DNA from: Candidatus Thorarchaeota archaeon
GTDB taxonomy: Archaea > Asgardarchaeota > Thorarchaeia > Thorarchaeales > Thorarchaeaceae
DNA length: 64,000 nucleotides
Direction of reading: 5' to 3'
Assembly (NCBI GenBank): GCA_016933575.1
Contig: JAFGAR010000088.1
Location: 203,764 to 267,763 of the forward strand
The notes below the pieces were generated by a model that saw only the letters and a list, made by a program, of their open reading frames with translations, did not search any database and was not told where the DNA came from. Of this stretch, positions 4,824-64,000 are shown in pieces. The translations under genes were made by a program, and so were the position numbers. Each line of letters begins with the position of its first letter. The stretch's first letter is position 1.

Positions 4824-6029
4824 TCACAGCTCCTGTGAATCTAGTATAGTTGTAATGTAGCTCTCCAACATTTCAGCAGGAACTTCAGAAAGCCCAATTA
4901 GTGTTGTTTGTCCACGTTGACCACTGCCTGATCGTTTTGTATCAATAATTCCGTGAGCATTAAGATCTTGAATCCATTCCCAAATTTGAGTGTGGGCTCT
5001 AGGTTCTTCATTATACTCCTCGCATGAGGAACGGTACATGTCTTCAACTTCACCCATGGTGACATAGGCGCTGCGAGTTTCTTTTAGTTGACGAGCTGTA
5101 GCTAAAAGAAGTAGCTTATGTTGTGGGGAGAGAGTACTGAATATTTCTTTTCGTAATTCAGGATGCGTATCTGCCTTTGCTTGTCGTGCATAGTCAGGAA
5201 CTACAATATCGGTTTGATCATTATCAGCTTGTTTTCCAGCACGCCAAAGTAATTCTATAGCATATCTTGCATCTCCACGTTCTGCTGCAATGTCTGCGAT
5301 TACATGTATGGTTTCGTCCATTACTGAGCTTTTCTCAAATGCCATTTCAACGCGGTTTCGGAGTATATCATATAATGCATCTCTATCATATCTTGAAAAA
5401 CGTAGAATGTTTCGTTGAAGTGTACTAAGTGTGCTCGAGTCAAGAATATCTTCATCAAGTGGGATTTTACGACCGATTCCAATCATCGAAACACGCTGAC
5501 GAGCATTGAGTTGATCGTCTGTGAGTCGGGTCAAATCATATAGAATATCAGCCCCTCTCTGTCTGATGAAATAATCAAGTTCATCAAGAATGAGAAGTAA
5601 ATATCTATCTTCTTCATCGAGAACCTCAACTAACATCTGTAGGAGTTCTTCTGGTGAGTGACCACGACGAGGAAATTCTGGCTTGAATTCTCTAAGGGCT
5701 CGAAGAAAGACAAGATAGGCTGTCTTATTTACACGACAATTGATGTGAATATTATGGAGATTGATGTTTCGGCGTTCAGCTGCTTGGACCATCTGTTCAG
5801 CAAATCTCTTTGCAACAGCAGTCTTTCCAGTTCCAACTGGACCTTCAATGATGAATTTATGACTGGTTCGCCCTGGAGAGTTAATCAATGTCTTAAAATT
5901 CTGTGCAAGAGTTCTAAGCTCAGATTGACGGTGAGGAAGGCTCTCAGGTACATAGTCGATTGATAGGAACTGCTCAGATTTGAAAACACTGCGTTTGCTT
6001 AGTTCATCCTCAATATAATCATGCACCAT
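4824..6029 (-). CDS. cdc6: Orc1/Cdc6 replication initiator
   Basis: YVPESLPHR, GPVGTGKT, INC, LILDELD, GDARYAI, C-terminal winged helix. Confidence 0.97.
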   Translation of the reverse strand: MVHDYIEDELSKRSVFKSEQFLSIDYVPESLPHRQSELRTLAQNFKTLINSPGRTSHKFIIEGPVGTGKTAVAKRFAEQMVQAAERRNINLHNIHINCRVNKTAYLVFLRALREFKPEFPRRGHSPEELLQMLVEVLDEEDRYLLLILDELDYFIRQRGADILYDLTRLTDDQLNARQRVSMIGIGRKIPLDEDILDSSTLSTLQRNILRFSRYDRDALYDILRNRVEMAFEKSSVMDETIHVIADIAAERGDARYAIELLWRAGKQADNDQTDIVVPDYARQAKADTHPELRKEIFSTLSPQHKLLLLATARQLKETRSAYVTMGEVEDMYRSSCEEYNEEPRAHTQIWEWIQDLNAHGIIDTKRSGSGQRGQTTLIGLSEVPAEMLESYITTILDSQEL

Positions 6030-54300: not shown

Positions 54301-57300
54301 CTATTTGATTAGTTTTTCACTCTTCATTTTTTGAACGCATTCTTTCACTGCCTTGTCCATATCATCATCGCTGAGATTGAACTCGGTAAGTAGTGACTTG
54401 ACTTCATTCACAAAATACTCTCTCCTGAGAAATCCTAATTGTCTGATGTCATGGAGATGCTTAGTAACAGGAACTTTGTAAGTTTCAAGTTCAGACACAA
54501 GGACTACATAAAGCACTTTTCCGCCAACAGCATCTTGGTCAATAGTGACATAGTCAAATTTCGCTCGTGCCTTATCCTCTTTTACTCCATAAATCTCAAT
54601 GGCTTCAACTATTACTCCTTTTAGCTTTGACGTCAAGTTTCTGTTTGTTGTTATTCCTAACTCTTGGAGAAAACCTGTCAGTTCACTCTCCAATAGGTCT
54701 TGAACTTCAAATCGATACCGTAATGCAACATTCTTCTCATTGATTCGTTTCTCTGTGGTCTGTCCTGTACCTTTCTCTCGTACACCAATTATTACATACT
54801 CAGGTTCAATAGTGATATATGGAATCCATCTGTCAGGATTCTGCAAGTATACTCCAGGGAGATGTGAATCATATTTTTGTCCTAACACCTGTGCTATCAT
54901 TGTACGAAGATGCCAAGACTCTTTAATCTCGTCGATACAGTCTTGTCTGATTACTAGATCAAAGGTATGACCTGCCCATTCTTGTTTTTCTTCAGACCAA
55001 TAGATAATCTCTTGTGATTCCAAGAGAGAACGTACCTGAGCATCGGTGAACCTAGTCACCATGATTTCTTGAAGTTCTGGAGAGATCTTGAATGGAGTAT
55101 TAATATTGACTCGCCAGCAGGAACCATGTTTTACACCTGGTTCGTTACTGACATGAAGAGGTTCACCATATGAACTTCCCGACCAGAAAAGATAGTGATG
55201 AGGTGTTATCTTAGCAAGAGTATGTTGTTTCTTGATATCTTCCAAGGAGATGTGTTTCAGTGGACAGGTCCAAGGGTCATGGTATAATTCAATGGTGATA
55301 TCATGCTCCATAGAAGTATTTAGCAAATCTTTTGCAGTTGGAGGCAAATTCAGACTCATTCCTGGATATGGATTATATCTAGTAACCCATGGCTTGAGTA
55401 CTGCTACATCTTCATTATATGAGATATCATTAAACCGATTCCAAATCAACCGTTGTCCAGTAACTATTACTGGTTCACATTCGTTATCAGGACGTCTGAG
55501 AATCTCAAGAAGGTCAACAGTTCTGTTGACGAGTAACTCTCCAATCAGGTTCTGAGTTCTCCTATTGATAAAGGCAGCTTTGTACATCTCATTATCTCTA
55601 TCAAGTGACACAGTACAGGTCGCTGGGGTACATCCGTCTAGCCCATTGTCGAGAATAAACATGGCCCTCAAAACCATGTCATCAGTCTTGTGATGAGGTT
55701 GTCGAACCTCATCATACTCGATAGGCTGGAGGTAACGAATCTCTGACAGTTCAAGGGTGCGTATCAGCGTGACATCTTCGTATCTTCTAGTTGTATAGTG
55801 AAGTCTTCCTATTGGAATCCATTTTTTGTTCTCTCTATCATCAATCCAGAGAATCTGTTCTCCATATTGTTCTGCCACAAGAATTCGTATTCGAGTTCCA
55901 TCACCCTGGAGTCGTGCATGCCAGCTTAGTAGACTGATATCACTCTCACTCCAGAGAGTCTTTCCCGAAACCATCTCTTGGAGAACTTCTCTTGGATCAA
56001 GGGTAGGATCAATTCCTCGTGGGTTTAAGAATGCTACATTCATATCATTGATTCCCGGACTACGTTGAAACAATAACCAAAGAAGGGTCGAGTCAGTAGC
56101 TCCCGAGGATGGTAGGACTATCATCTGTCCGAACCTAATCTTGGTCAATGTTTTCTGTTTGTCAAGCATCCTATTCTTATCTACGATTCTCTTCCGTAAT
56201 CGTTCCAAGAGCTTGTGTCTATCAAGGACTGAGTCCCCCATAGTGTGAGTCTTAGGATAGACTGGCTTCATTCCCAGACCGATGAGATGCCACGGTCGAA
56301 CATAGTCCCATAGAGATGCTAATGTCTGTGGAAATACTACTTCTGGATTGCTACCTACGGTAGCAAGTATCAGAAGAAAGAGATGATTTCCTATTAAGAG
56401 AAGGATATCTGGGTGCTTCATCTGCATGGTATTCACATGCTCTTTCTGTGCCATTGAGAGGTTTCTTGAGATGGAACGATATGGAAGTAATCTCTCCCAA
56501 ATTCGTTTGCTCAACGTACTGGTTTCCAGAGTCTGACGGACCAGACGTAATGTGTTCAAGAGAGAGGTCGTGTCTTCTGGGTGAATCTCTGGTAGTATTT
56601 TCTCAATCTGATCAAGTAGCTCGATCAAATCAACATCAGTATCTTGTTTCAGAAACTTGATTGTGCCAAATAAGTGGCGTATCTCGGTCAGCGCAATTTT
56701 CCTGCAATCCATCTCATAGTTCGTAAGATAATACTCTGAGGGGGGTCGTGTTGTCCTCTGTTGTTGAGGGACTGCAAGTCGCATCTCTCTGGTTTCTCTT
56801 CTTCTATTGATATCGATTATAGGTAGTAAGAGCTTTACTCTCCCATCCTTCTCTAACTCTTTCTGAACTTGAGTTGGATTGAATATCAGTCGGGGTATGA
56901 CGTCTTGAGGTATACTATATTCTGCTGATACTTCTTCAATCTCAAGATCGAAATCTGAGCGTGGTACAGGATTATACTCTTGATGAGGTAACAGATGTGG
57001 TATCAGTTCCATTATCTGTTTAAATTGCTGCTCTCCATACCAATTACTATGCTGGACATCACCACCAATCCTATAATGAACCTCAGTGCTAGTACGTCCA
57101 CCAGATTGAAAATTCTGTCCCCATCCCTGTAAAGGAGCAATCTCAATTATTTTGAAATCTGGAGACCTCCCTGGTCGTTCTATGATTATACCTCGTTCAT
57201 GATAATTTGTTGACACTTGTGCTCTCGAACGTTCTGGAGGCATAGGAACGTTCCAGATGATGATATCAACAATATTCTGCCATACAGAGTCCTGATAGAA

Positions 57301-59598
57301 AGGTGCTACACATCTTGTGGAATAGGTAATACTGTTCTGAGCAATTGGCACAGATCGTGCAAACCACACGATAGTACTCTTCGCAGGGACCGAATTGGAG
57401 AGGAGTGTGACAATCTCATCAAGATACTTCTTATGAGATTCTGGAGTACTCTGACGAAGATGTTCCCATCCGGAAACCACAATCAGCGGATTTTGACTTC
57501 CAGTCAATTGATTCTGAAGCCATGTTCGGATGTGACTGATTGACGCACCTTCGTAGATAAAAGATTGAATACGGTCTGAGAGAGACCTCATCAGAACTCT
57601 CTCTCTGAAGAAACGTCTGATTGACCTATCCTGGTACTTGATTCGAAACTGTTTCTTTCTCAGAACAAAGTCTGTGTATTCTCCAATTAGATCAAACCAG
57701 TACACATCTCGATGTCGTCTTTTAGCAAGACTGTGAATGTACTCAAGTCCGTGCCAGCGTTCTGCAATGGATGCTGCAGACTGAGAAGGAGCACTGCTAC
57801 CAGAAACTGTAAGATAGAGTTGAAACTCTTTTCGATCCTCTACTCGATACTTGAAGGGTTTCTGCGGCTGGGGGATGTCCAGTTCTTCAGTTCCTGTGTT
57901 TGGTTGTGTCACAGCTAGCATCCGCATTACAATTCTGAGATTATTCTGTCCCTTTGCTGGAACGAGAAGATCTCCTGTTGATAATGTTCCATCGATACAA
58001 CCCTGATATGCCTTCAATACCAACGGAAGGACTGCCTCACTGATCTCTCTCCAATTCTGGCACGAATCGACAATCAAAACAGCCTTTGCCAGACTCTTTT
58101 GTGCATCAAAGTCCTTCCACATGAATCTCTGATAATCAGCAAGTACCGCTTGTTCATATGCATCTAGCTGTTCTACTTCGTAGGTATCAGGAGTTGTAGA
58201 TAGAGTATTTTTCCACTCATCATCAGTCATCTCACGATGGTTCAGGAAAAACTCTCGGACCACATTCTCCTTGTCCTTAGAGTGTGACTCTGTTCCATAG
58301 ATATCAAAATCAAAAGCACTCTTGGTCTTCAGGTCAATTATCATGAAGGGTTCACAGATAATGATAGAGGGAGCACCATCAACACGGGTCTGTTTCTTTG
58401 CGCGTGCAAGGATAAAGTCAAGTCGCCCTCTTCCATCATCAACAGGGAGTTCTGAGAGCAAGATTAGTCCGCTATTATCATAGGCCATCTCTGTTCCATG
58501 ATAGATAATTCCATTGAAACTAAAGGGACTCTGAAAATTCTTGCTAACGAATCGATGAATCTTGACCCCTAATCTTCTACTTTGTTCTTGATATTCTTGT
58601 AGAAGACCCACAGAGTCCGTTTCATCTAGAATACCATTCTCCAATAGTTTATCAAGAGTCTGTAATGATTCATCTAGGATGGCCCCATTTCGTCTTGTTT
58701 GAGTAACAACATCTTGGAGAATGTGGCTCTCTGTACCCTTATCCATCTTCTTGTTCTGATCCTCATTTATCTCTTCAATCTCAATAGGAACATCCTCTGT
58801 GGTAGATTGCATAACCTCTGCTGTAATCGACTGATGTTTTCCATTACGAATGCCATACTCATTCTGTATCAGTTCAACAACAACCCTAAGTTCCCGTAGT
58901 CCTTCTCTGACATAGTTTGACAATCCAGATCTCCGTTCAGAATATACATAGTCCAGAAAGGGGAGAAGTCTGAGTAGAAGCATATCGACATATCTCTTTG
59001 CATCTTTTATCGGAACACCATACTTCAGACACTGCCGTCCGAGTTCCATGAGGGGACTTCTAATCATATCAGCAAAGTCAAGTTCCGGAAGATGATTATG
59101 TCTGACAGGATAGAATGGTACCTTTGAGGATCCATGATATCCATCGATTATTTTTCCATCATCAATCTCAACAGAAACTGGTTTTGGGAAGAAATATCTC
59201 CCTTTTGTGACATCTCGTAGCCTACCTCCTGTATAGTCCCATATAATATTGAGATACTTCTTTGTTCCGTCTTCTCGTTTCACTCGTTTTGTTTCTGTAT
59301 TCCCATACCGGACTGAGGTCTTCAAAAGAATTCGAGTGAAGCTTCGTCGAATGTTGTTTTCAGCCTTGAGCAAAGGTGTTGCATCAGGACTACCATCTCT
59401 TACTGTCTGTTGATATTCTTCTTTTGCAGTACTCCATACCTTTGCCATTCCTTTAATTCGTTTACCTAGTCCAAAATATAGTGCTCTAGATTTCCCTGTA
59501 GCCCTATCTCTTGCTAAGGCAAGAGTGATTGCCATCCCCATCTTGAAAGCAGTAGTAAGAATTCTTGAGGGATTTCTAGGATACAGGATATTTGTCAC
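54301..59598 (-). CDS. Very large protein with RecB/Cas4-like PD-(D/E)XK nuclease domain
   Basis: SELPV...GRLDFIL...IIDLKT...EQLDAY; remainder unassigned. Confidence 0.65.
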   Translation of the reverse strand: MTNILYPRNPSRILTTAFKMGMAITLALARDRATGKSRALYFGLGKRIKGMAKVWSTAKEEYQQTVRDGSPDATPLLKAENNIRRSFTRILLKTSVRYGNTETKRVKREDGTKKYLNIIWDYTGGRLRDVTKGRYFFPKPVSVEIDDGKIIDGYHGSSKVPFYPVRHNHLPELDFADMIRSPLMELGRQCLKYGVPIKDAKRYVDMLLLRLLPFLDYVYSERRSGLSNYVREGLRELRVVVELIQNEYGIRNGKHQSITAEVMQSTTEDVPIEIEEINEDQNKKMDKGTESHILQDVVTQTRRNGAILDESLQTLDKLLENGILDETDSVGLLQEYQEQSRRLGVKIHRFVSKNFQSPFSFNGIIYHGTEMAYDNSGLILLSELPVDDGRGRLDFILARAKKQTRVDGAPSIIICEPFMIIDLKTKSAFDFDIYGTESHSKDKENVVREFFLNHREMTDDEWKNTLSTTPDTYEVEQLDAYEQAVLADYQRFMWKDFDAQKSLAKAVLIVDSCQNWREISEAVLPLVLKAYQGCIDGTLSTGDLLVPAKGQNNLRIVMRMLAVTQPNTGTEELDIPQPQKPFKYRVEDRKEFQLYLTVSGSSAPSQSAASIAERWHGLEYIHSLAKRRHRDVYWFDLIGEYTDFVLRKKQFRIKYQDRSIRRFFRERVLMRSLSDRIQSFIYEGASISHIRTWLQNQLTGSQNPLIVVSGWEHLRQSTPESHKKYLDEIVTLLSNSVPAKSTIVWFARSVPIAQNSITYSTRCVAPFYQDSVWQNIVDIIIWNVPMPPERSRAQVSTNYHERGIIIERPGRSPDFKIIEIAPLQGWGQNFQSGGRTSTEVHYRIGGDVQHSNWYGEQQFKQIMELIPHLLPHQEYNPVPRSDFDLEIEEVSAEYSIPQDVIPRLIFNPTQVQKELEKDGRVKLLLPIIDINRRRETREMRLAVPQQQRTTRPPSEYYLTNYEMDCRKIALTEIRHLFGTIKFLKQDTDVDLIELLDQIEKILPEIHPEDTTSLLNTLRLVRQTLETSTLSKRIWERLLPYRSISRNLSMAQKEHVNTMQMKHPDILLLIGNHLFLLILATVGSNPEVVFPQTLASLWDYVRPWHLIGLGMKPVYPKTHTMGDSVLDRHKLLERLRKRIVDKNRMLDKQKTLTKIRFGQMIVLPSSGATDSTLLWLLFQRSPGINDMNVAFLNPRGIDPTLDPREVLQEMVSGKTLWSESDISLLSWHARLQGDGTRIRILVAEQYGEQILWIDDRENKKWIPIGRLHYTTRRYEDVTLIRTLELSEIRYLQPIEYDEVRQPHHKTDDMVLRAMFILDNGLDGCTPATCTVSLDRDNEMYKAAFINRRTQNLIGELLVNRTVDLLEILRRPDNECEPVIVTGQRLIWNRFNDISYNEDVAVLKPWVTRYNPYPGMSLNLPPTAKDLLNTSMEHDITIELYHDPWTCPLKHISLEDIKKQHTLAKITPHHYLFWSGSSYGEPLHVSNEPGVKHGSCWRVNINTPFKISPELQEIMVTRFTDAQVRSLLESQEIIYWSEEKQEWAGHTFDLVIRQDCIDEIKESWHLRTMIAQVLGQKYDSHLPGVYLQNPDRWIPYITIEPEYVIIGVREKGTGQTTEKRINEKNVALRYRFEVQDLLESELTGFLQELGITTNRNLTSKLKGVIVEAIEIYGVKEDKARAKFDYVTIDQDAVGGKVLYVVLVSELETYKVPVTKHLHDIRQLGFLRREYFVNEVKSLLTEFNLSDDDMDKAVKECVQKMKSEKLIK

Positions 59599-59783
59599 AA
59601 TGTCATATTTGATTAATATTTAATAAATTATTCGGGAAATTCGACATAATGAATTATTTGATTTAATGGAATATTATGGAATTATTAACGATTTTAATAA
59701 AATTATATCTTGCAGTCTTAATAAATTTATAAGATATCGAATAGACATTATTACGAGTTCAAAAGACATCTTCGGGATAAGGA

Positions 59784-61624
59784 GATGAGTGAACTCAACT
59801 GACTCAAGACACGGGTCAGAAATTTATAAGATATAGGCGAACAACATGGCTCGTTCCAAGGGTGTGACAATCGCGGTTAAAATTCCCATCAAATGGGAGG
59901 CTATGACCGAGAGGACTAGGCAGAGGCTTAGACAGACCATTGGACGAGATACCAGGGTGATTCATGCATTTCTTGGAGTAATCGAAGAGCATGAAGAAGA
60001 ATTACTGATAGGCAAAAATAAGGATAGAATTGATGGTAGCAAAGTAGACCAGCTCACTATGACTGCTCTCAAGGTGAAATCAGGACATGAACAGAGAACC
60101 ACTGTTCCGCATGATTTCAAAGTCAGGTTTCCTCGAATCTCTCAGAATGAGATGGATGAATGTGGACTAACTGCAGTTGCGCTCTATGAGAGTTATCTCA
60201 AACTAAGGAAGAAGAAAGGACGGACTACTTCACGTCCGACAAGAATCAATTGTACTCGTAGAATACCGCGATGGGTCTTCTCTCAAAGATTCAAGCTAAT
60301 CAGAAGAAAGACCTCTGCTTCTAATTGGTGGATAGATATCCGTGATGCCCTTGACTCCGTAAAAGCGGAAAGAGTACGTCATGATCGATTGTCAATTCCA
60401 CTGAAGATATCTCCCTATCATCTAAACCAGATAGAACGGGGTGAGGTGAAAGCATTACAGATTTTCACTGATAGAGAACAGAAATGGTGGGTAAGTCTGG
60501 CTGTTCGTATCACAATTGATGAGCCTCAAGAATCTGACTTACCTCCTGCAATTCTTGGTATCGACCTTGGAATCGAGAAAGCAGTGTGTTCAACTCTCCT
60601 CACTCCAGAGAAGGTACGAGAAACAAAATACTTCATCCAGAAAGAGAAAACCGTGCAAATCAAGAAATATGATAAGATTATAGCTGAATTGCAACGAGAG
60701 ATGCATACCAGACAGAATGAAAACTTATCCTATGACTGGGTAGCCAAGAGGCTTCGTCGATTGCATTCTAAGAGAGAAAACATAGCTAAGGAGTACGATC
60801 GTGTTCTTGTTCGACAAATACTTGACTATATCTCTGAATTATCCAAGAACTATACACTCTATGTTGCCATTGGTCGCCTGAAAAATATACGAATGCGTGC
60901 AAAGAAAGGTAACTATCAAGGTCGCAAGTTCAGGGGAATGATACACTCTTGGGCATTTGCTCGGATAACTGATAGTCTGAAACACGGACTAGCCCAGATT
61001 GGATGGAAGATTGATGGAAAGGATTCACGCTTCAGAACTGTTCCTGAAATGTGGACATCTATTATCTGCTGGAAGTGTGGGGGCAAGGGCAAGAGATCTA
61101 GACAGAATTATTTCCGCTGTCCATCTTGTGGACACAAGACCAATGCAGATCGAAATGGTAGTATCAATATTGCAACACGCATGCTTACGCTCACAAAGTC
61201 ACTGCACTCTGTGAGAGGACTAGGCAAGTGGGAAAGTGCTATTGCACAAAGCCTGCAGCCAAAAGCCCGAGAGAAGAAACCTTCACAAGGGGAGTCCTTA
61301 CTCTCCAAAATAGAACCTGCATCAGGTTCTGGAGAGTCCGCGGCTGTTCACTTTGTCCAGTTGGATCTTACCAGCTTCAGTGATGAACCTGGTGAGAGTG
61401 ATAATGACCCCGCCGTGGGAAGTACTGTGGGAACATTCCCTGCCGCTGAAAGTGATGTATCAGTATCAAAGCAGGAAAAAGAAGCCAGGTCTGTAGGAGG
61501 GATCCCATCTCAATGATGACAGACAATGCTCTTACCAATTTAGAAATCCCTTGGATTTCCGAAAGTGGTGACACTGGTAAGAGAGGGGTGGAACACAGAA
61601 GTTTCTTGTTGATGTTCACTCATC
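59784..61624 (+). mobile_element. Inverted-repeat-bounded element carrying only tnpB (non-autonomous)
   Basis: Left GATGAGTGAACTCAAC (59784-59799) and right GTTGATGTTCACTCATC (61608-61624) are inverted repeats with a 1-nt indel; no transposase and no clear TSD. Confidence 0.6.
59846..61516 (+). CDS. tnpB: TnpB/Cas12f-like RNA-guided nuclease with rearranged RuvC-II
   Basis: RuvC-I ILGIDLG; RuvC-II VAIGRL (E to G); PEMWTS-CWKC..CPSC Zn finger; RuvC-III NADRNGSINI. Confidence 0.88.
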   Translation: MARSKGVTIAVKIPIKWEAMTERTRQRLRQTIGRDTRVIHAFLGVIEEHEEELLIGKNKDRIDGSKVDQLTMTALKVKSGHEQRTTVPHDFKVRFPRISQNEMDECGLTAVALYESYLKLRKKKGRTTSRPTRINCTRRIPRWVFSQRFKLIRRKTSASNWWIDIRDALDSVKAERVRHDRLSIPLKISPYHLNQIERGEVKALQIFTDREQKWWVSLAVRITIDEPQESDLPPAILGIDLGIEKAVCSTLLTPEKVRETKYFIQKEKTVQIKKYDKIIAELQREMHTRQNENLSYDWVAKRLRRLHSKRENIAKEYDRVLVRQILDYISELSKNYTLYVAIGRLKNIRMRAKKGNYQGRKFRGMIHSWAFARITDSLKHGLAQIGWKIDGKDSRFRTVPEMWTSIICWKCGGKGKRSRQNYFRCPSCGHKTNADRNGSINIATRMLTLTKSLHSVRGLGKWESAIAQSLQPKAREKKPSQGESLLSKIEPASGSGESAAVHFVQLDLTSFSDEPGESDNDPAVGSTVGTFPAAESDVSVSKQEKEARSVGGIPSQ

Positions 61625-61640
61625 ATATTACAAGAAATGG
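61517..61640 (+). ncRNA. Putative omegaRNA 3' portion (may begin inside tnpB)
   Basis: Stems CTCTTACCA(61529)/TGGTAAGAG(61575), GAAATCC/GGATTTC and GTGGAACA/TGTTCAC, ending at TTCAC. Confidence 0.55.
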
Positions 61641-61930
61641 GTTATCGCGACCTGCTGATTACAATGGGTAAAATCAATTTGCAGCAAATTGGGTCTCGAA
61701 GTCTGCAATGCTAAGTACTTCACAATTTGGGATATTTCTTAATGAGATCATTTTCAGCTTCGTTAATTTTCTGGGCTAGAAAACTTCTAACATCAGATTC
61801 TCCTTGTAACTGGATCATTGAAACTCCCATACTGACTATCAGTACAATACCTAATAATGATAATCTGTATCACATACTCCAGTAACCATAAGATATTACA
61901 GTCCATCTTGTAAACTTAGACAAAAATTGG

Positions 61931-62073
61931 TGGAGCCCCGGCCGAGATTTGAACTCGGGATCTCCTGATCTCTTGATCAAGAAACTGCAGTCATCTGACA
62001 TACAAGTCAGGCGCTTTCTAGGAAATGATCCAGAATATGATCACAACCTCTTAGACCACTTAGCTACCGAGGC
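61931..62073 (-). tRNA. tRNA-Thr(TGT) with introns at 23/24 (62015-62049) and 37/38 (61970-62000)
   Basis: GCCTCGG/CCGGGGC-T-CCA, CCTGA-CT-TGT-A|..|A-TCAGG; BHB helices TCTA/TAGA and CTTG/CAAG. Confidence 0.9.
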
Positions 62074-62293: not shown

Positions 62294-62836
62294 TCACTTA
62301 TCGTGATAGACATTGTCTATGATTATTGCATATGCCAGTAGCATCAATCTTGGTGCATTCGGATCAACGATGCGAATAACATAACGATCTTTGAAATTGA
62401 ATGCAGGCGCAAAAACATCTCTCCATTTGTCCCCCTTCTTAATCTCCGCATAGACTCTATTCTTATCATGAGGATCAGTTATCACAAAGTTCCATTTTGT
62501 GACACCACCTTGGGCTTTATAGATCATATTGTCTTCTGAATCATACATATCAATAGACCCTCTTAGAGCAACCATTGGTCTTTTTCCACGACCTATTAGG
62601 TCTCCATTTGGTGTCTTCACATCATAGATTGGACGTGCACTCACAAGTTTCTTAGCGATTATACATACTACCGAATCATCAGGATTTCTTAGTTCAATCT
62701 CAGCTCGCATCGAGATGAGTTTCCTTTTCATAATCCCTATTTTTTCGCCTTGTGGATTGTAAATCTCGCCACCACCGAATTTCCATGTTTTCTCGTGTAG
62801 TACATAGTGTTCAATTGATTGATCTAATAGACTCAT
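62294..62836 (-). CDS. LURP-one/scramblase (tubby-like) family protein
   Basis: Repeated G..IG..K strand pattern, WNFVI, DRYVIRI, LLAYAIIID. Confidence 0.8.
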   Translation of the reverse strand: MSLLDQSIEHYVLHEKTWKFGGGEIYNPQGEKIGIMKRKLISMRAEIELRNPDDSVVCIIAKKLVSARPIYDVKTPNGDLIGRGKRPMVALRGSIDMYDSEDNMIYKAQGGVTKWNFVITDPHDKNRVYAEIKKGDKWRDVFAPAFNFKDRYVIRIVDPNAPRLMLLAYAIIIDNVYHDK

Positions 62837-63130
62837 AATAAATCACCATCAAGATGATTTACACTCAAACGAATACAATTAAGATAAACTGGGTTGAATA
62901 CCTTGGTACAAATCAGATAAGAACCCCATCTCATGTTGTTTTTGTGCCTGAATATTCTTATTCATCAAGGACATGTTTATGAGGTACTGTGCGCAAATAA
63001 CCGATAAGGACAGAATCCTTAATTGATTAACCCGTATCACACCTGTGTCATACAAACTCTAATGCTTACGAGAAAAGTAAAATAGCACACAGAAATGAAA
63101 CTTAGGATGACGTACCAATAGGTGAGCCAA

Positions 63131-64000
63131 ATGCAGGATTATAATACATTCGCACAATCCATAGTCGATTTATTCGTTCCAATCGCACAATTTTTCCAAT
63201 CATTAGGTATTCCATTTGGTCCTTTTGGATGGATGTTTATTATCGGAGCATCTCCACTAGTTCTAATTATAGTCCTATTGGTGTTTCGAGGTCGTCGCGG
63301 CTCCGGTGGTACTGATGTTCATGAAGGAATTAAGAAAATCATTGCATCAACTGGTGATGTTTCAATTGGAATGGCTGGCGCAAAGAAACTCAAATATCTC
63401 AAGACCCCAGGTCATGCATTAGTATTCCTCAAGATTGAAGAAAATGCAATCCAACAGGCATTGACCGCAGTTGATTACTATGCTCAGCAGGGCGATATAG
63501 ATGAATCTATGAAGACAAAACTTGTTGAAACATACCAAGAACGTCTTGACGCAATAAAACAAGCTATTACCAGAGATGAACAATTCAAAGAGATTCTTGA
63601 TACATCAACTGCTGTTGACAAGGCACGATCCGATTATCTCCAGAAACTTGCTGCTATGTCTGGCACAGCAGTGGAAACAGACGAAACTTCTGAAGCCGGT
63701 CCTTCTAGTGTTGGGATGCCAGATGCTGTACGAACAACTCCTTCAGGTGGCAAGCCTCCCGGTGGAGGAGCTCCTGGTGGTGGGCCTCCCGGTGGAGGAG
63801 CTCCCGGTGGTGGACCTCCTGGCGGAGGAGCTCCCGGTGGTGGACCTCCTGGCGGAGGAGCTCCCGGTGGTGGACCTCCTGGCGGAGGAGCTCCTGGTGG
63901 TGGACCTCCTGGCGGAGGAGCTCCTGGTGGTGGGCCTCCCGGTGGAGGAGCTCCTGGTGGTGGGCCTCCCGGTGGAGGAGCTCCTGGTGGTGGGCCTCCC
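63131..64000 (+). CDS. Single-pass membrane protein with helical domain and Gly/Pro repeat (runs off window end)
   Basis: MQDYNTFAQ...GWMFIIGASPLVLIIVLLVFRGRR TM, open to the window end. Confidence 0.8.
   Translation, partial: MQDYNTFAQSIVDLFVPIAQFFQSLGIPFGPFGWMFIIGASPLVLIIVLLVFRGRRGSGGTDVHEGIKKIIASTGDVSIGMAGAKKLKYLKTPGHALVFLKIEENAIQQALTAVDYYAQQGDIDESMKTKLVETYQERLDAIKQAITRDEQFKEILDTSTAVDKARSDYLQKLAAMSGTAVETDETSEAGPSSVGMPDAVRTTPSGGKPPGGGAPGGGPPGGGAPGGGPPGGGAPGGGPPGGGAPGGGPPGGGAPGGGPPGGGAPGGGPPGGGAPGGGPPGGGAPGGGPP
63761..64000 (+). repeat. 30-bp tandem repeat encoding GGGAPGGGPP, at least 8 units
   Basis: ggtggaggagctcctggtggtgggcctccc with synonymous third-position variation. Confidence 0.95.

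Follow-up and report, generated by a model that had tools for sequence, protein, structure and literature searches.

A TnpB with a relocated RuvC-II glutamate, its overlapping guide RNA and a giant Cas1-like partner: probable parts of an Asgard aCas1-TnpB element

Introduction

What is the role of a TnpB protein in an Asgard archaeon when the canonical glutamate of its RuvC-II motif is replaced by glycine and another glutamate appears further downstream? This question is raised by an ORF of 556 aa at positions 59846–61516 (+ strand) in a 64,000-nt stretch of Candidatus Thorarchaeota DNA, hereafter the window.

The exchange of Glu for Gly together with a downstream Glu occurs in many branches of prokaryotic TnpBs, some of them nearly exclusive to archaea (PMC10691335). 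The group designated TnpB2 has the same rearrangement and includes an archaeal protein of Thermoplasma, TvTnpB, for which cleavage has been shown; activity has been demonstrated experimentally for both TvTnpB and ApmFanzor and cannot do without the relocated Glu (PMC10530073). TnpBs with a relocated glutamate are an already documented and experimentally validated class. Elements of Asgard archaea in which tnpB is associated with aCas1 have been catalogued as well, reportedly also by Makarova et al. 2020. They correspond to groups Cas1H-Asgard-1 and -2 of Altae-Tran et al. 2023 (PMC10691335), which describes them only computationally and gives a conserved GTTCACTCA downstream of tnpB that resembles the end of a CRISPR repeat. 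We consider it likely that the TnpB studied here is a guide-RNA–dependent DNA endonuclease with a rearranged RuvC-II motif and that it forms half of such an Asgard aCas1-TnpB element.

The tnpB ORF and its catalytic residues

Identification of the ORF product as a TnpB was borne out by a match to NCBIfam NF040570 (guided_TnpB; 101.9 bits, cut-off of 100) and by the Pfam matches OrfB_IS605 and Cas12f1-like_TNB, with scores of 47.9 bits for PF07282 and 31.3 bits for PF01385 that both exceed the cut-offs. The Asgard host was likewise corroborated, in that homologs up to 75% identical to the protein carry Candidatus Thorarchaeota source names. Relatives were found in Thor- and Heimdallarchaeota and in Odinarchaeia, and a search of viral contigs yielded no member of the family, only distant relatives with identities of at most 34%.

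The folded core of the protein comprises approximately aa 1–470. In an alignment of 54 homologous sequences with identities down to 21%, D240 of RuvC-I (in GIDLG; 60563–60565, + strand) is invariant, and Gly343 at the position of the canonical RuvC-II Glu (in YVAIGRL; 60872–60874), Glu401 (in VPEMWTS; 61046–61048), which is located 58 residues past G343 and before the Zn finger, and D435 of RuvC-III (in NADRNG; 61148–61150) are each at least 90% conserved. The four Cys residues of the intact CxxC...CxxC Zn finger (C408, C411, C425, and C428; 61067–61129) are also kept. The active site is thus as the sequence-only reading had described it, with Gly in place of the RuvC-II Glu, a Glu further on, both Asp residues intact and a RuvC-I motif that reads DLG. 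The two homologs that have the canonical RuvC-II Glu, P0282 and P0309, both lack the downstream Glu. Judged from these sequences, the Gly343/Glu401 arrangement is not due to chance, and the Gly and the later Glu come as a linked pair.

In the AF2 model of the protein (pLDDT of 83.2), the strand formed by residues 337–344 ends at G343, and E401 comes directly after the strand formed by residues 396–400. The predicted structure matches the beta-4/beta-5 arrangement of rearranged TnpBs as given in PMC10691335. Together with Asp240 and Asp435, Glu401 at the end of beta-5 would make up the active site, with Gly343 replacing the glutamate of beta-4.

Its residues place the protein in the RuvC-II–rearranged type (RIIr, or TnpB2). 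With these proteins, including TvTnpB of Thermoplasma volcanium, it shares the Gly swap, the later Glu before the Zn finger and the remaining catalytic residues, which are intact in both. It differs from them in the Gly-Glu spacing (58 residues, compared with a quoted value of approximately 45), in its greater length (556 aa including an overlap with an RNA gene), and in its partner, which is a giant Cas1-like protein rather than a Y1 or serine TnpA.

Given that the catalytic and zinc-binding residues are all conserved and that a covarying guide RNA is present, an active RNA-guided nuclease is the likeliest reading, and this part of the earlier proposal stands. By analogy with other TnpBs, the protein would be catalytically active and have a role in mobility. 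Alternatively, it might be a domesticated, nuclease-dead binder of the TldR kind that regulates the neighboring giant gene or its own promoter. The paralogs are old (64–67% identity) and fixed in position beside one partner gene, a 13- to 15-nt repeat connects the leader with an upstream promoter-like box, and the canonical RuvC-II Glu is missing, all of which would suit such a regulator. However, the family as a whole keeps D240, E401 and D435 as well as the Zn finger, with the Gly/Glu swap coupled, and TvTnpB and ApmFanzor, whose sites are arranged in this way, are catalytically active (PMC10530073). The inactivated TnpBs described in publications lose catalytic residues, whereas all three acidic residues are conserved here, one of them relocated. 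The distribution of the family also speaks against domestication, as described below, and we regard a TldR-like function as quite improbable.

Relation to Fanzors and Cas12f

The sequence-only reading took Gly plus a downstream Glu as a mark of Fanzors and rearranged TnpBs. As a mark of RuvC-II–rearranged TnpBs the arrangement holds, but it implies no special tie to Fanzors, given that it is common to many prokaryotic branches. The protein could be regarded as a specific relative, or an ancestor-like form, of eukaryotic Fanzors that has been kept in the archaeal lineage nearest to eukaryotes: the Gly-for-Glu exchange and the later Glu are common to both, the host is an Asgard archaeon, and relatives are present in Heimdallarchaeota and Odinarchaeia as well. 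Fanzor1 and Fanzor2 indeed resemble this TnpB in the kind of active-site rearrangement and in the overall TnpB fold, whereas the host here is a prokaryote (Thorarchaeota), neither a eukaryote nor a (giant) virus of eukaryotes, and RuvC-I is DLG.

The similarity scores point away from Fanzors. The family profile scored 139.8 bits against AsCas12f and 136 bits against the TnpB 9nzp, but only 60.8 bits against Fanzor2; the score for ISDra2 TnpB was 44 bits, and Fanzor1 was absent from the matches at E ≤ 0.01. In a Foldseek search with the TnpB model, Cas12f and TnpB entries ranked first (E values down to 5e-17), Fanzor2 ranked 22nd, and Fanzor1 had no entry among the best 50 matches. Furthermore, the rearrangement recurs across many prokaryotic branches and the RuvC-III motif NADRN of our protein is that of the 'derived TnpB' clade (PMC10691335), and one published analysis (PMC10711439) traces Fanzors back to a bacterial enzyme clade. 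A special tie of the Asgard TnpB to eukaryotic Fanzors is not supported, and a specific kinship between them seems most improbable. Because relocated-Glu TnpBs are documented and Cas1-linked TnpBs of Asgard archaea are catalogued, the locus has no bearing on the origins of Fanzors, and the earlier finding, as it was worded, adds little.

The best structure and profile matches (AsCas12f, OsCas12f, and ISFba1/ISDra2 TnpB) span nearly the whole folded core. The Cas12f and ISFba1/ISDra2 TnpB structures keep the canonical RuvC-II Glu, whereas the protein here has Gly343, and Cas12f works with CRISPR arrays, whereas no array is present at this tnpB locus.

A guide RNA overlapping the 3' end of tnpB

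A guide (omega) RNA scaffold was delineated at 61211–61645 (+ strand), where it overlaps the final ~100 codons of tnpB and continues for ~130 nt past the stop codon. The RNAalifold consensus for 31 loci is a structure of ~410 nt with 103 pairs, 49 of which show compensatory changes; the covarying helices lie at 61211–61619 (+ strand). The pairs are canonical in 96.9% of cases, compared with 41–45% when partners are slid, and the ratio of 341 GU cells to 31 AC cells places the guide RNA on the + strand. No Rfam family matches the scaffold. The GTTCACTCA motif (61614–61622, + strand) occurs at a large majority of the 31 loci in the alignment, and a further conserved 14-nt motif, AAGAAATGGGTTAT, lies beyond it (61632–61645, + strand). 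The variable sequence past AAGAAATGGGTTAT is presumed to be the guide, a position that we infer along with the target-adjacent motif (TAM) of the enzyme.

The low-complexity tail of ~100 aa to which the sequence-only reading had drawn attention is present in the ORF, and it is conserved (~aa 456–556) in three paralogs and in a stand-alone copy that the genome also contains; it is not a feature of the protein, however, but arises mainly because the ORF reads through the guide-RNA gene that it overlaps. Over aa 456–556, codon-position variation is flat, and two relatives contain an in-frame TGA at codon 543, with the DNA downstream nonetheless conserved. Orphan copies that carry the guide RNA alone also exist. 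The tail is disordered in the AF2 model (pLDDT of <50), and it is conserved as DNA yet disordered as protein because the last ~100 codons are an RNA gene that is read through. These observations provide evidence for the protein tail being a dispensable read-through, with the ~410-nt scaffold probably made from the 3' end of the tnpB gene itself.

The giant Cas1-like partner gene

A gene for a protein of 1765 aa (54301–59598, − strand) is located head-to-head with tnpB across a gap of 247 nt. A Cas1-like catalytic domain at aa 1–235 (58894–59598, − strand) is followed by a set of RecB/Cas4-type PD-(D/E)xK motifs at approximately aa 383–481 (approximately 58114–58476, − strand) and a RecA/KaiC-like domain at aa 586–860 (57019–57843, − strand). 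The region of aa 1–238 matched nine Cas1 or casposase structure entries (Z of 9.2–12.9, 153–199 residues aligned, rmsd of 3.5–4.1), with no other family matching that region among the 50 structure matches listed, and residues E80, N117, H167, D174, D177 and R180 of the domain are invariant. Sequence comparisons yielded less. The giant genes showed no Pfam or NCBIfam match to Cas1 at E ≤ 10, and the sole match of PF01867 over the genome was a canonical Cas1 encoded elsewhere. Comparison of the giant with Cas1 by hhalign was weak (E values of 0.05 and 0.03) and inconsistent in register; the giant profile matched none of the PDB sequences, and the ESM Atlas yielded no usable match. Because the Pfam HMM is silent and the profile-profile comparison is weak, the Cas1 assignment rests on fold and motif spacing. 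The divergently transcribed protein, with its Cas1-like, RecB/Cas4-like nuclease and RecA-like domains, is presumed to act as the integrase of the element.

Together, tnpB and the giant gene match the published class of Asgard aCas1-TnpB elements in the Asgard host, the position of tnpB beside a Cas1 homolog, the presence of GTTCACTCA, and the absence of a Y1 or serine TnpA. In the elements of PMC10691335, the hypervariable sequence lies upstream of GTTCACTCA, whereas in this subfamily that stretch consists of only a few nucleotides and the variable DNA is found past a further conserved AAGAAATAGGTyAT. The sequence-only reading had overlooked that this tnpB is part of the published class.

Casposons insert in or beside tRNA genes and generate target duplications of 14–15 bp. 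The element resembles them in its Cas1-fold integrase domain (casposase 6opm, Z of 10.9) and in its mobile appearance. It differs in lacking a family B polymerase, in a Cas1-like domain that is without the NH2-terminal beta domain and has nuclease and RecA-like domains attached to it, and in that no target duplication was detected around the whole unit.

TnpB and its RNA would cut target sites that lack the element and so bring about its retention or copying, a role demonstrated for other TnpBs. The wider interest may lie in the element itself, in which a presumed Cas1-fold integrase with a fused Cas4-like nuclease is combined with a Cas12 ancestor and an exceptionally large guide RNA. Such a locus lends itself to studying how the partnership of Cas1 and TnpB began, a question made testable by the precise boundaries of the guide RNA, the evidence for a dispensable read-through tail, and a locus-specific promoter/leader repeat.

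Pairing and distribution of the element

Pairing of tnpB with a giant gene was observed at 27 of 32 loci, with a gap of 244–306 nt in 24 and of 1.2–1.4 kb in 3. Co-diversification of the two proteins was expected but was rejected, because their pairwise identities show no correlation (Spearman r = 0.00, a value attained in 950 of 2000 permutations). For example, a TnpB identity of 83% coincides with a giant identity of 32%, and a giant identity of 79% with a TnpB identity of 63%. The tnpB units therefore appear to move or to be exchanged between giant loci.

The element is carried by 57 of 87 genomes of the class, with 0 to at least 16 matches per genome, and truncated and stop-bearing copies occur in this class-wide survey. 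Such patchy spread, with copy numbers that vary and copies in decay, is in keeping with a selfish element and speaks against a domesticated TldR-like regulator. Within the genome studied, the TnpB copies are just 64–67% identical, and there is thus no sign of recent transposition. In the window, the whole island of 8 kb is bracketed by the two halves of a tRNA-Leu(CAA) gene; association with tRNA was considered as a general feature and dismissed, with none found at the other two copies in the genome. A repeat beyond the giant gene was sought and not found, nor was a target duplication found around the whole giant-tnpB unit.

Leader element X and its flanking repeats

A conserved 66-nt element, designated X (59754–59819, + strand; alignment of 32 loci), lies between tnpB and the giant gene, in the tnpB leader or left end. 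It consists of an outer stem, GAGTTCA/TGAACTC, with a variable, covarying inner stem, followed by a hairpin, CTGACyC...GGGTCAG, and it holds an inverted copy of the right-end motif GTTGAGTTCACTC. All copies share this fold of two hairpins (mean z = −4.9), with 26 GU versus 2 AC in the second. A 15-nt, TATA-box–like direct repeat, DR1 (AAATTTATAAGATAT; 59723–59737, + strand), has a conserved CTTAAT in front of it, and X begins 16 nt downstream. An exact second copy, DR2 (59820–59834, + strand), abuts the last hairpin of X and ends 11 nt before the ATG of tnpB. These copies are the sole two matches to the sequence in the window. Across 31 loci, the repeats are 13–15 nt long and locus-specific, differing between loci and not within them.

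Such a repeat pair could suggest that the giant protein and TnpB form a fixed CRISPR-like or defence module, in which the repeats around X are a one-unit array generated by Cas1-type staggered integration. Cas1-like and RecB/Cas4-like domains do adjoin a Cas12 ancestor here, the constant 13- to 15-nt length of the direct repeats equals the size of casposon target duplications, and GTTCACTCA has been likened to a CRISPR repeat end (PMC10691335). What lies between the repeats, however, is a conserved 66-nt unit and not spacer-like sequence; X is present at every locus; the giant protein has no match in PADLOC; the uncorrelated identities (r = 0.00) and apparent mobility of tnpB units between giants do not suit a fixed pair; and the island interrupts the tRNA-Leu gene in the window as an inserted element would. 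We consider a module of this kind very unlikely and favor the mobile aCas1-TnpB element.

Several other candidate explanations for the repeats and ends were rejected. DR1 and DR2 were dismissed as the target duplication of some larger element, because the window contains no further copy and the sequences past the three giant genes have nothing in common. Nor does X qualify as a MITE flanked by a target duplication, since the 16 nt beside DR1 vary and inspection by eye gave no sign of inverted repeats shared with the other end. For the ends of the tnpB unit, too, a target duplication specific to the locus was discarded, with the TGTA before CGAG and after GTTCACTCAC proving generic (own, 4.87; cross, 4.86).

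The locus-specific 13- to 15-nt repeat, which copies a promoter-like box from ~100 nt upstream into the tnpB leader, is possibly new. The available text of PMC10691335 makes no mention of DR1/DR2, of the ~300-nt overlap of ORF and RNA, or of the decoupled TnpB and giant identities. The last motif of X, AAGAAAyGGGTCAG, resembles AAGAAATAGGTyAT at the end of the 3' guide-RNA scaffold. An unlikely possibility is that RNA spanning X and DR2 serves as a second, built-in guide that steers TnpB to its own promoter and results in autorepression. The conserved CTTAAT before DR1 could then be the target-adjacent motif, and a match of the length of the repeat might give binding without cutting, and hence repression. 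With a repeat that differs between loci and not within them, every paralogous locus could be addressed individually.

TnpB protein and its predicted catalytic residues

The tnpB ORF (59846-61516, + strand) runs through 556 codons without interruption. Its product scored 101.9 bits against the NCBIfam model for RNA-guided TnpB (cut-off, 100) and matched the OrfB_IS605 and Cas12f1-like TNB domains of Pfam. Among 1.84 billion representative proteins, 1118 relatives were identified, 54 of which, with identities down to 21%, were aligned. The sequence-only reading had claimed that the RuvC-II Glu is replaced by Gly and that a Glu appears about 58 residues later, with the Asp residues of RuvC-I and RuvC-III intact, and the alignment bore this out: D240 (motif GIDLG) was invariant, and G343 (YVAIGRL) at the canonical RuvC-II Glu position, E401 (VPEMWTS), which follows 58 residues later, and D435 (NADRNG) were each conserved in at least 90% of the homologs. 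C408, C411, C425, and C428 form a CxxC...CxxC zinc finger. Only two homologs retained Glu at the canonical position, and both lacked the downstream Glu; the two positions therefore act as a coupled swap. The TnpB of this locus is probably an active RNA-guided nuclease.

A structure model, named in the same reading as a check, agreed with the swap at the level of its predicted strands. In an AlphaFold2 model built from the 54-homolog alignment and confident over residues 1-470 (mean pLDDT, 83.2), a predicted strand at 337-344 ends at G343 and another at 396-400 precedes E401, the same beta-4 to beta-5 relocation of Glu as described for rearranged TnpBs (PMC10691335). In Foldseek, the structures closest to the model were AsCas12f (E 5e-17), OsCas12f, ISFba1 TnpB, and ISDra2 TnpB; Fanzor2 stood at rank 22, and no Fanzor1 entry was among the best 50. 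The profile of the family scored 139.8 bits with AsCas12f, 136 with TnpB (9nzp), 60.8 with Fanzor2, and 44 with ISDra2 TnpB, and Fanzor1 was absent from its matches at E <= 0.01. Neither set of scores points to a special kinship with Fanzors.

TnpB and Cas12 proteins with an altered RuvC-II comprise two major clades and eight large branches, the largest of which carries Gly in place of Glu compensated by an alternative Glu, and several of which are nearly restricted to archaea (PMC10691335). The same swap is common to all Fanzors and the 'TnpB2' group; ApmFanzor requires the alternative Glu, and DNA cleavage has been shown for the archaeal TvTnpB (PMC10530073). The 'Fanzor-type' site thus recurs among prokaryotes. 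Another published analysis traces Fanzors to a clade of bacterial enzymes (PMC10711439). The Fanzor resemblance of this TnpB is convergent at most.

Guide RNA scaffold in the tail of the ORF

The genome contains three full-length tnpB paralogs, all on one contig and 64-67% identical, as well as one additional copy of the tail region alone. Among 28 coding sequences, the fractions of differing sites at codon positions 1, 2, and 3 were 0.24-0.27, 0.16-0.17, and 0.53-0.54 for residues 1-450, compared with 0.236, 0.224, and 0.286 for residues 456-556. This flat pattern indicates constraint on nucleotides rather than amino acids. The protein model is disordered from residue 482 onward, and in two relatives (L031 and L033) codon 543 is an in-frame TGA, 16 codons ahead of the usual stop, with the DNA beyond it still conserved, which fits RNA-level constraint.

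RNAalifold analysis of 31 loci yielded 103 base pairs across 61211-61619, 49 of them with pair-keeping changes on both sides, and the structure starts exactly at the onset of the flat codon pattern. Canonical pairs accounted for 96.9% of cells, versus 41-45% when partners were slid by one to three columns, and the excess of GU (341 cells) over AC (31 cells) places the RNA on the + strand. The approximately 100-residue low-complexity tail noted in the sequence-only reading is thus present in the ORF, but, given the flat codon pattern, disorder, TGA-bearing copies, and compensated pairs, it is the guide (omega) RNA scaffold, through which the ORF reads, and not a protein feature. Many database 'proteins' of 80-190 amino acids match the tail region only and are probably orphan RNA copies.

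Past the last helix lies the motif GTTCACTCA (61614-61622), followed by a spacer that is 9 nt in the window and varies in length among loci, and then by the conserved AAGAAATAGGTyAT (61632-61645). Beyond this point the loci diverge in sequence, so that the guide most likely begins directly after AAGAAATAGGTyAT.

Related ends were observed elsewhere in the genome. Locus L004 carries a stand-alone guide-RNA region that lacks tnpB (1567-1915; G000:C64:173955-174303), is 78% identical, and has a decayed GTTCACTCA; a separate right-end fragment about 430 nt upstream of it (1079-1153; G000:C64:173467-173541) with GTTCACTCACC and AAGAAATAGGTCAT intact; and a tRNA at 223-307. A degenerate stretch resembling the scaffold end, GAGTTTCTTTTAGTTGAC...AAGAAGTAGCTTAT, at about 5061-5120 (+) of the window may be an old remnant. 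A related yet distinct right-end family, GGAACACGGGAGTTGAAGGTT...GGTTCACTCACC, on contigs C32 (2685, -) and C33 (11709 and 3082, -) probably represents guide-RNA ends of remoter TnpB relatives.

The divergent partner gene

Each of the three paralogs stands head-to-head with a giant ORF of 1615-1765 amino acids across a gap of about 250 nt. In 32 loci whose upstream sequence was long enough, all from other Thorarchaeia genomes, the gap to the head-to-head giant was 244-306 nt in 24 and 1.2-1.4 kb in three. The giant (54301-59598, - strand) had no match in Pfam, NCBIfam, or PADLOC. Residues 1-1200 were modelled with a pLDDT of 78.3 and searched against 48,161 chains. Residues 1-238 gave nine Cas1/casposase matches (8flj, Z 12.9; 4n06, 12.3; 6opm, 10.9; and 4w8k, 7kft, 6qxf, 7cr6, 8d3p, and 5vvk), every one on the Cas1 COOH-terminal catalytic domain, and residues 586-860 matched RecA/KaiC/RAD51-type domains (Z 10-12), with Z scores below about 13 being possibly unspecific for helical domains. 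Against this caution, Cas1 was the sole family for residues 1-238 among the matches listed, and E80, N117, H167, D174, D177, and R180 were invariant in 37 homologs. The order of these residues fits the Cas1 pattern, Glu...Asn...His...Asp-x2-Asp/Glu-x2-Arg. Sequence profiles did not confirm the assignment. Residues 383-481 contain a RecB/Cas4-type motif set (G391-x2-D394, D422-x-K424, and Q477-x3-Y481).

Asgard tnpB genes associated with aCas1 have GTTCACTCA downstream, as at this locus (PMC10691335). Together with the Cas1-like giant, this motif marks the locus as one of the aCas1-TnpB elements known from the literature, with the Cas1 part assigned by predicted fold and residue pattern. The locus is a further member of an already described type, with a few features that merit a bench test.

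A 34-nt direct repeat (59581-59614 and 59630-59663, +; 74% identical) was also present; the first copy overlaps the giant start codon and the second is common to the same giant subfamily.

The tnpB leader and mobility

The sequence upstream of the ATG is arranged alike at every giant-linked locus. A conserved CTTAAT precedes DR1, which is a TATA-box-like 13- to 15-mer (59723-59737 in the window). After roughly 16 nt that vary but finish in GTA comes the 66-nt element X (59754-59819), which folds into two hairpins in every copy (mean z, -4.9) and whose inner stem covaries. DR2 (59820-59834), which repeats DR1 exactly, and GGCGAA follow. Within X the right-end GTTGAGTTCACTC recurs in inverted orientation, and the motif at the end of X resembles that closing the 3' scaffold. 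No third match to DR1/DR2 was found in the window. Within a locus, the longest exact DR1/DR2 match had a median length of 13 nt, versus 6 nt between loci, with only 1.6% of cross-locus comparisons reaching at least 12 nt. Candidate explanations for this identity within but not between loci would be a promoter-directed guide built into the leader, gene conversion, or staggered integration of the Cas1 type that occurred repeatedly.

Two loci (L005 and L025) have a tnpB unit without a giant; both lack DR1, and conservation in both begins at TGTA|CGAG. The family is patchy: of 87 genomes in the class, 57 carry it, as do 17 of the 27 in the genus. A genome has anywhere from no match to at least 16, fragments and stop-bearing copies among them. 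Given that TnpB identity between loci was uncorrelated with giant identity, it seems that tnpB units are not co-inherited with the giant loci but move or recombine from one to another.

Island borders and flanking genes

Two tRNA pieces lie 8 kb apart on the minus strand: a 5' half with anticodon arm (CAA) at 62236-62196, and a T arm with the matching acceptor 3' strand and CCA at 54166-54133. Their acceptor strands match (GCCCCAG/CTGGGGC), and ARAGORN called tRNA-Leu(CAA) in 344 of 425 junction choices when they were joined in silico. An intact tRNA-Leu(CAA) is present elsewhere on the contig (C64:11937-12056), so that the pieces look like an interrupted gene rather than a needed split tRNA. 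They bracket the giant, the tnpB unit, and an intron-containing tRNA-Met, and this 8-kb block most likely splits an old tRNA-Leu gene. The tRNA-Met (61931-62073, -; Rfam tRNA, 47.5 bits; ARAGORN, CAT with a 45-nt intron) lies on the opposite strand, some 290 nt past the right end of the tnpB unit.

Farther out, an ORF of 180 amino acids (62294-62836, -) matched the Pfam families LURP-one-related (E 4e-7) and scramblase (2e-6), which are best known from eukaryotes. Another ORF (63122-64000, +), which extends beyond the window edge, combines an NH2-terminal hydrophobic segment with a long (GGAPGGGPP)n repeat, in which G+C rises to 0.58.
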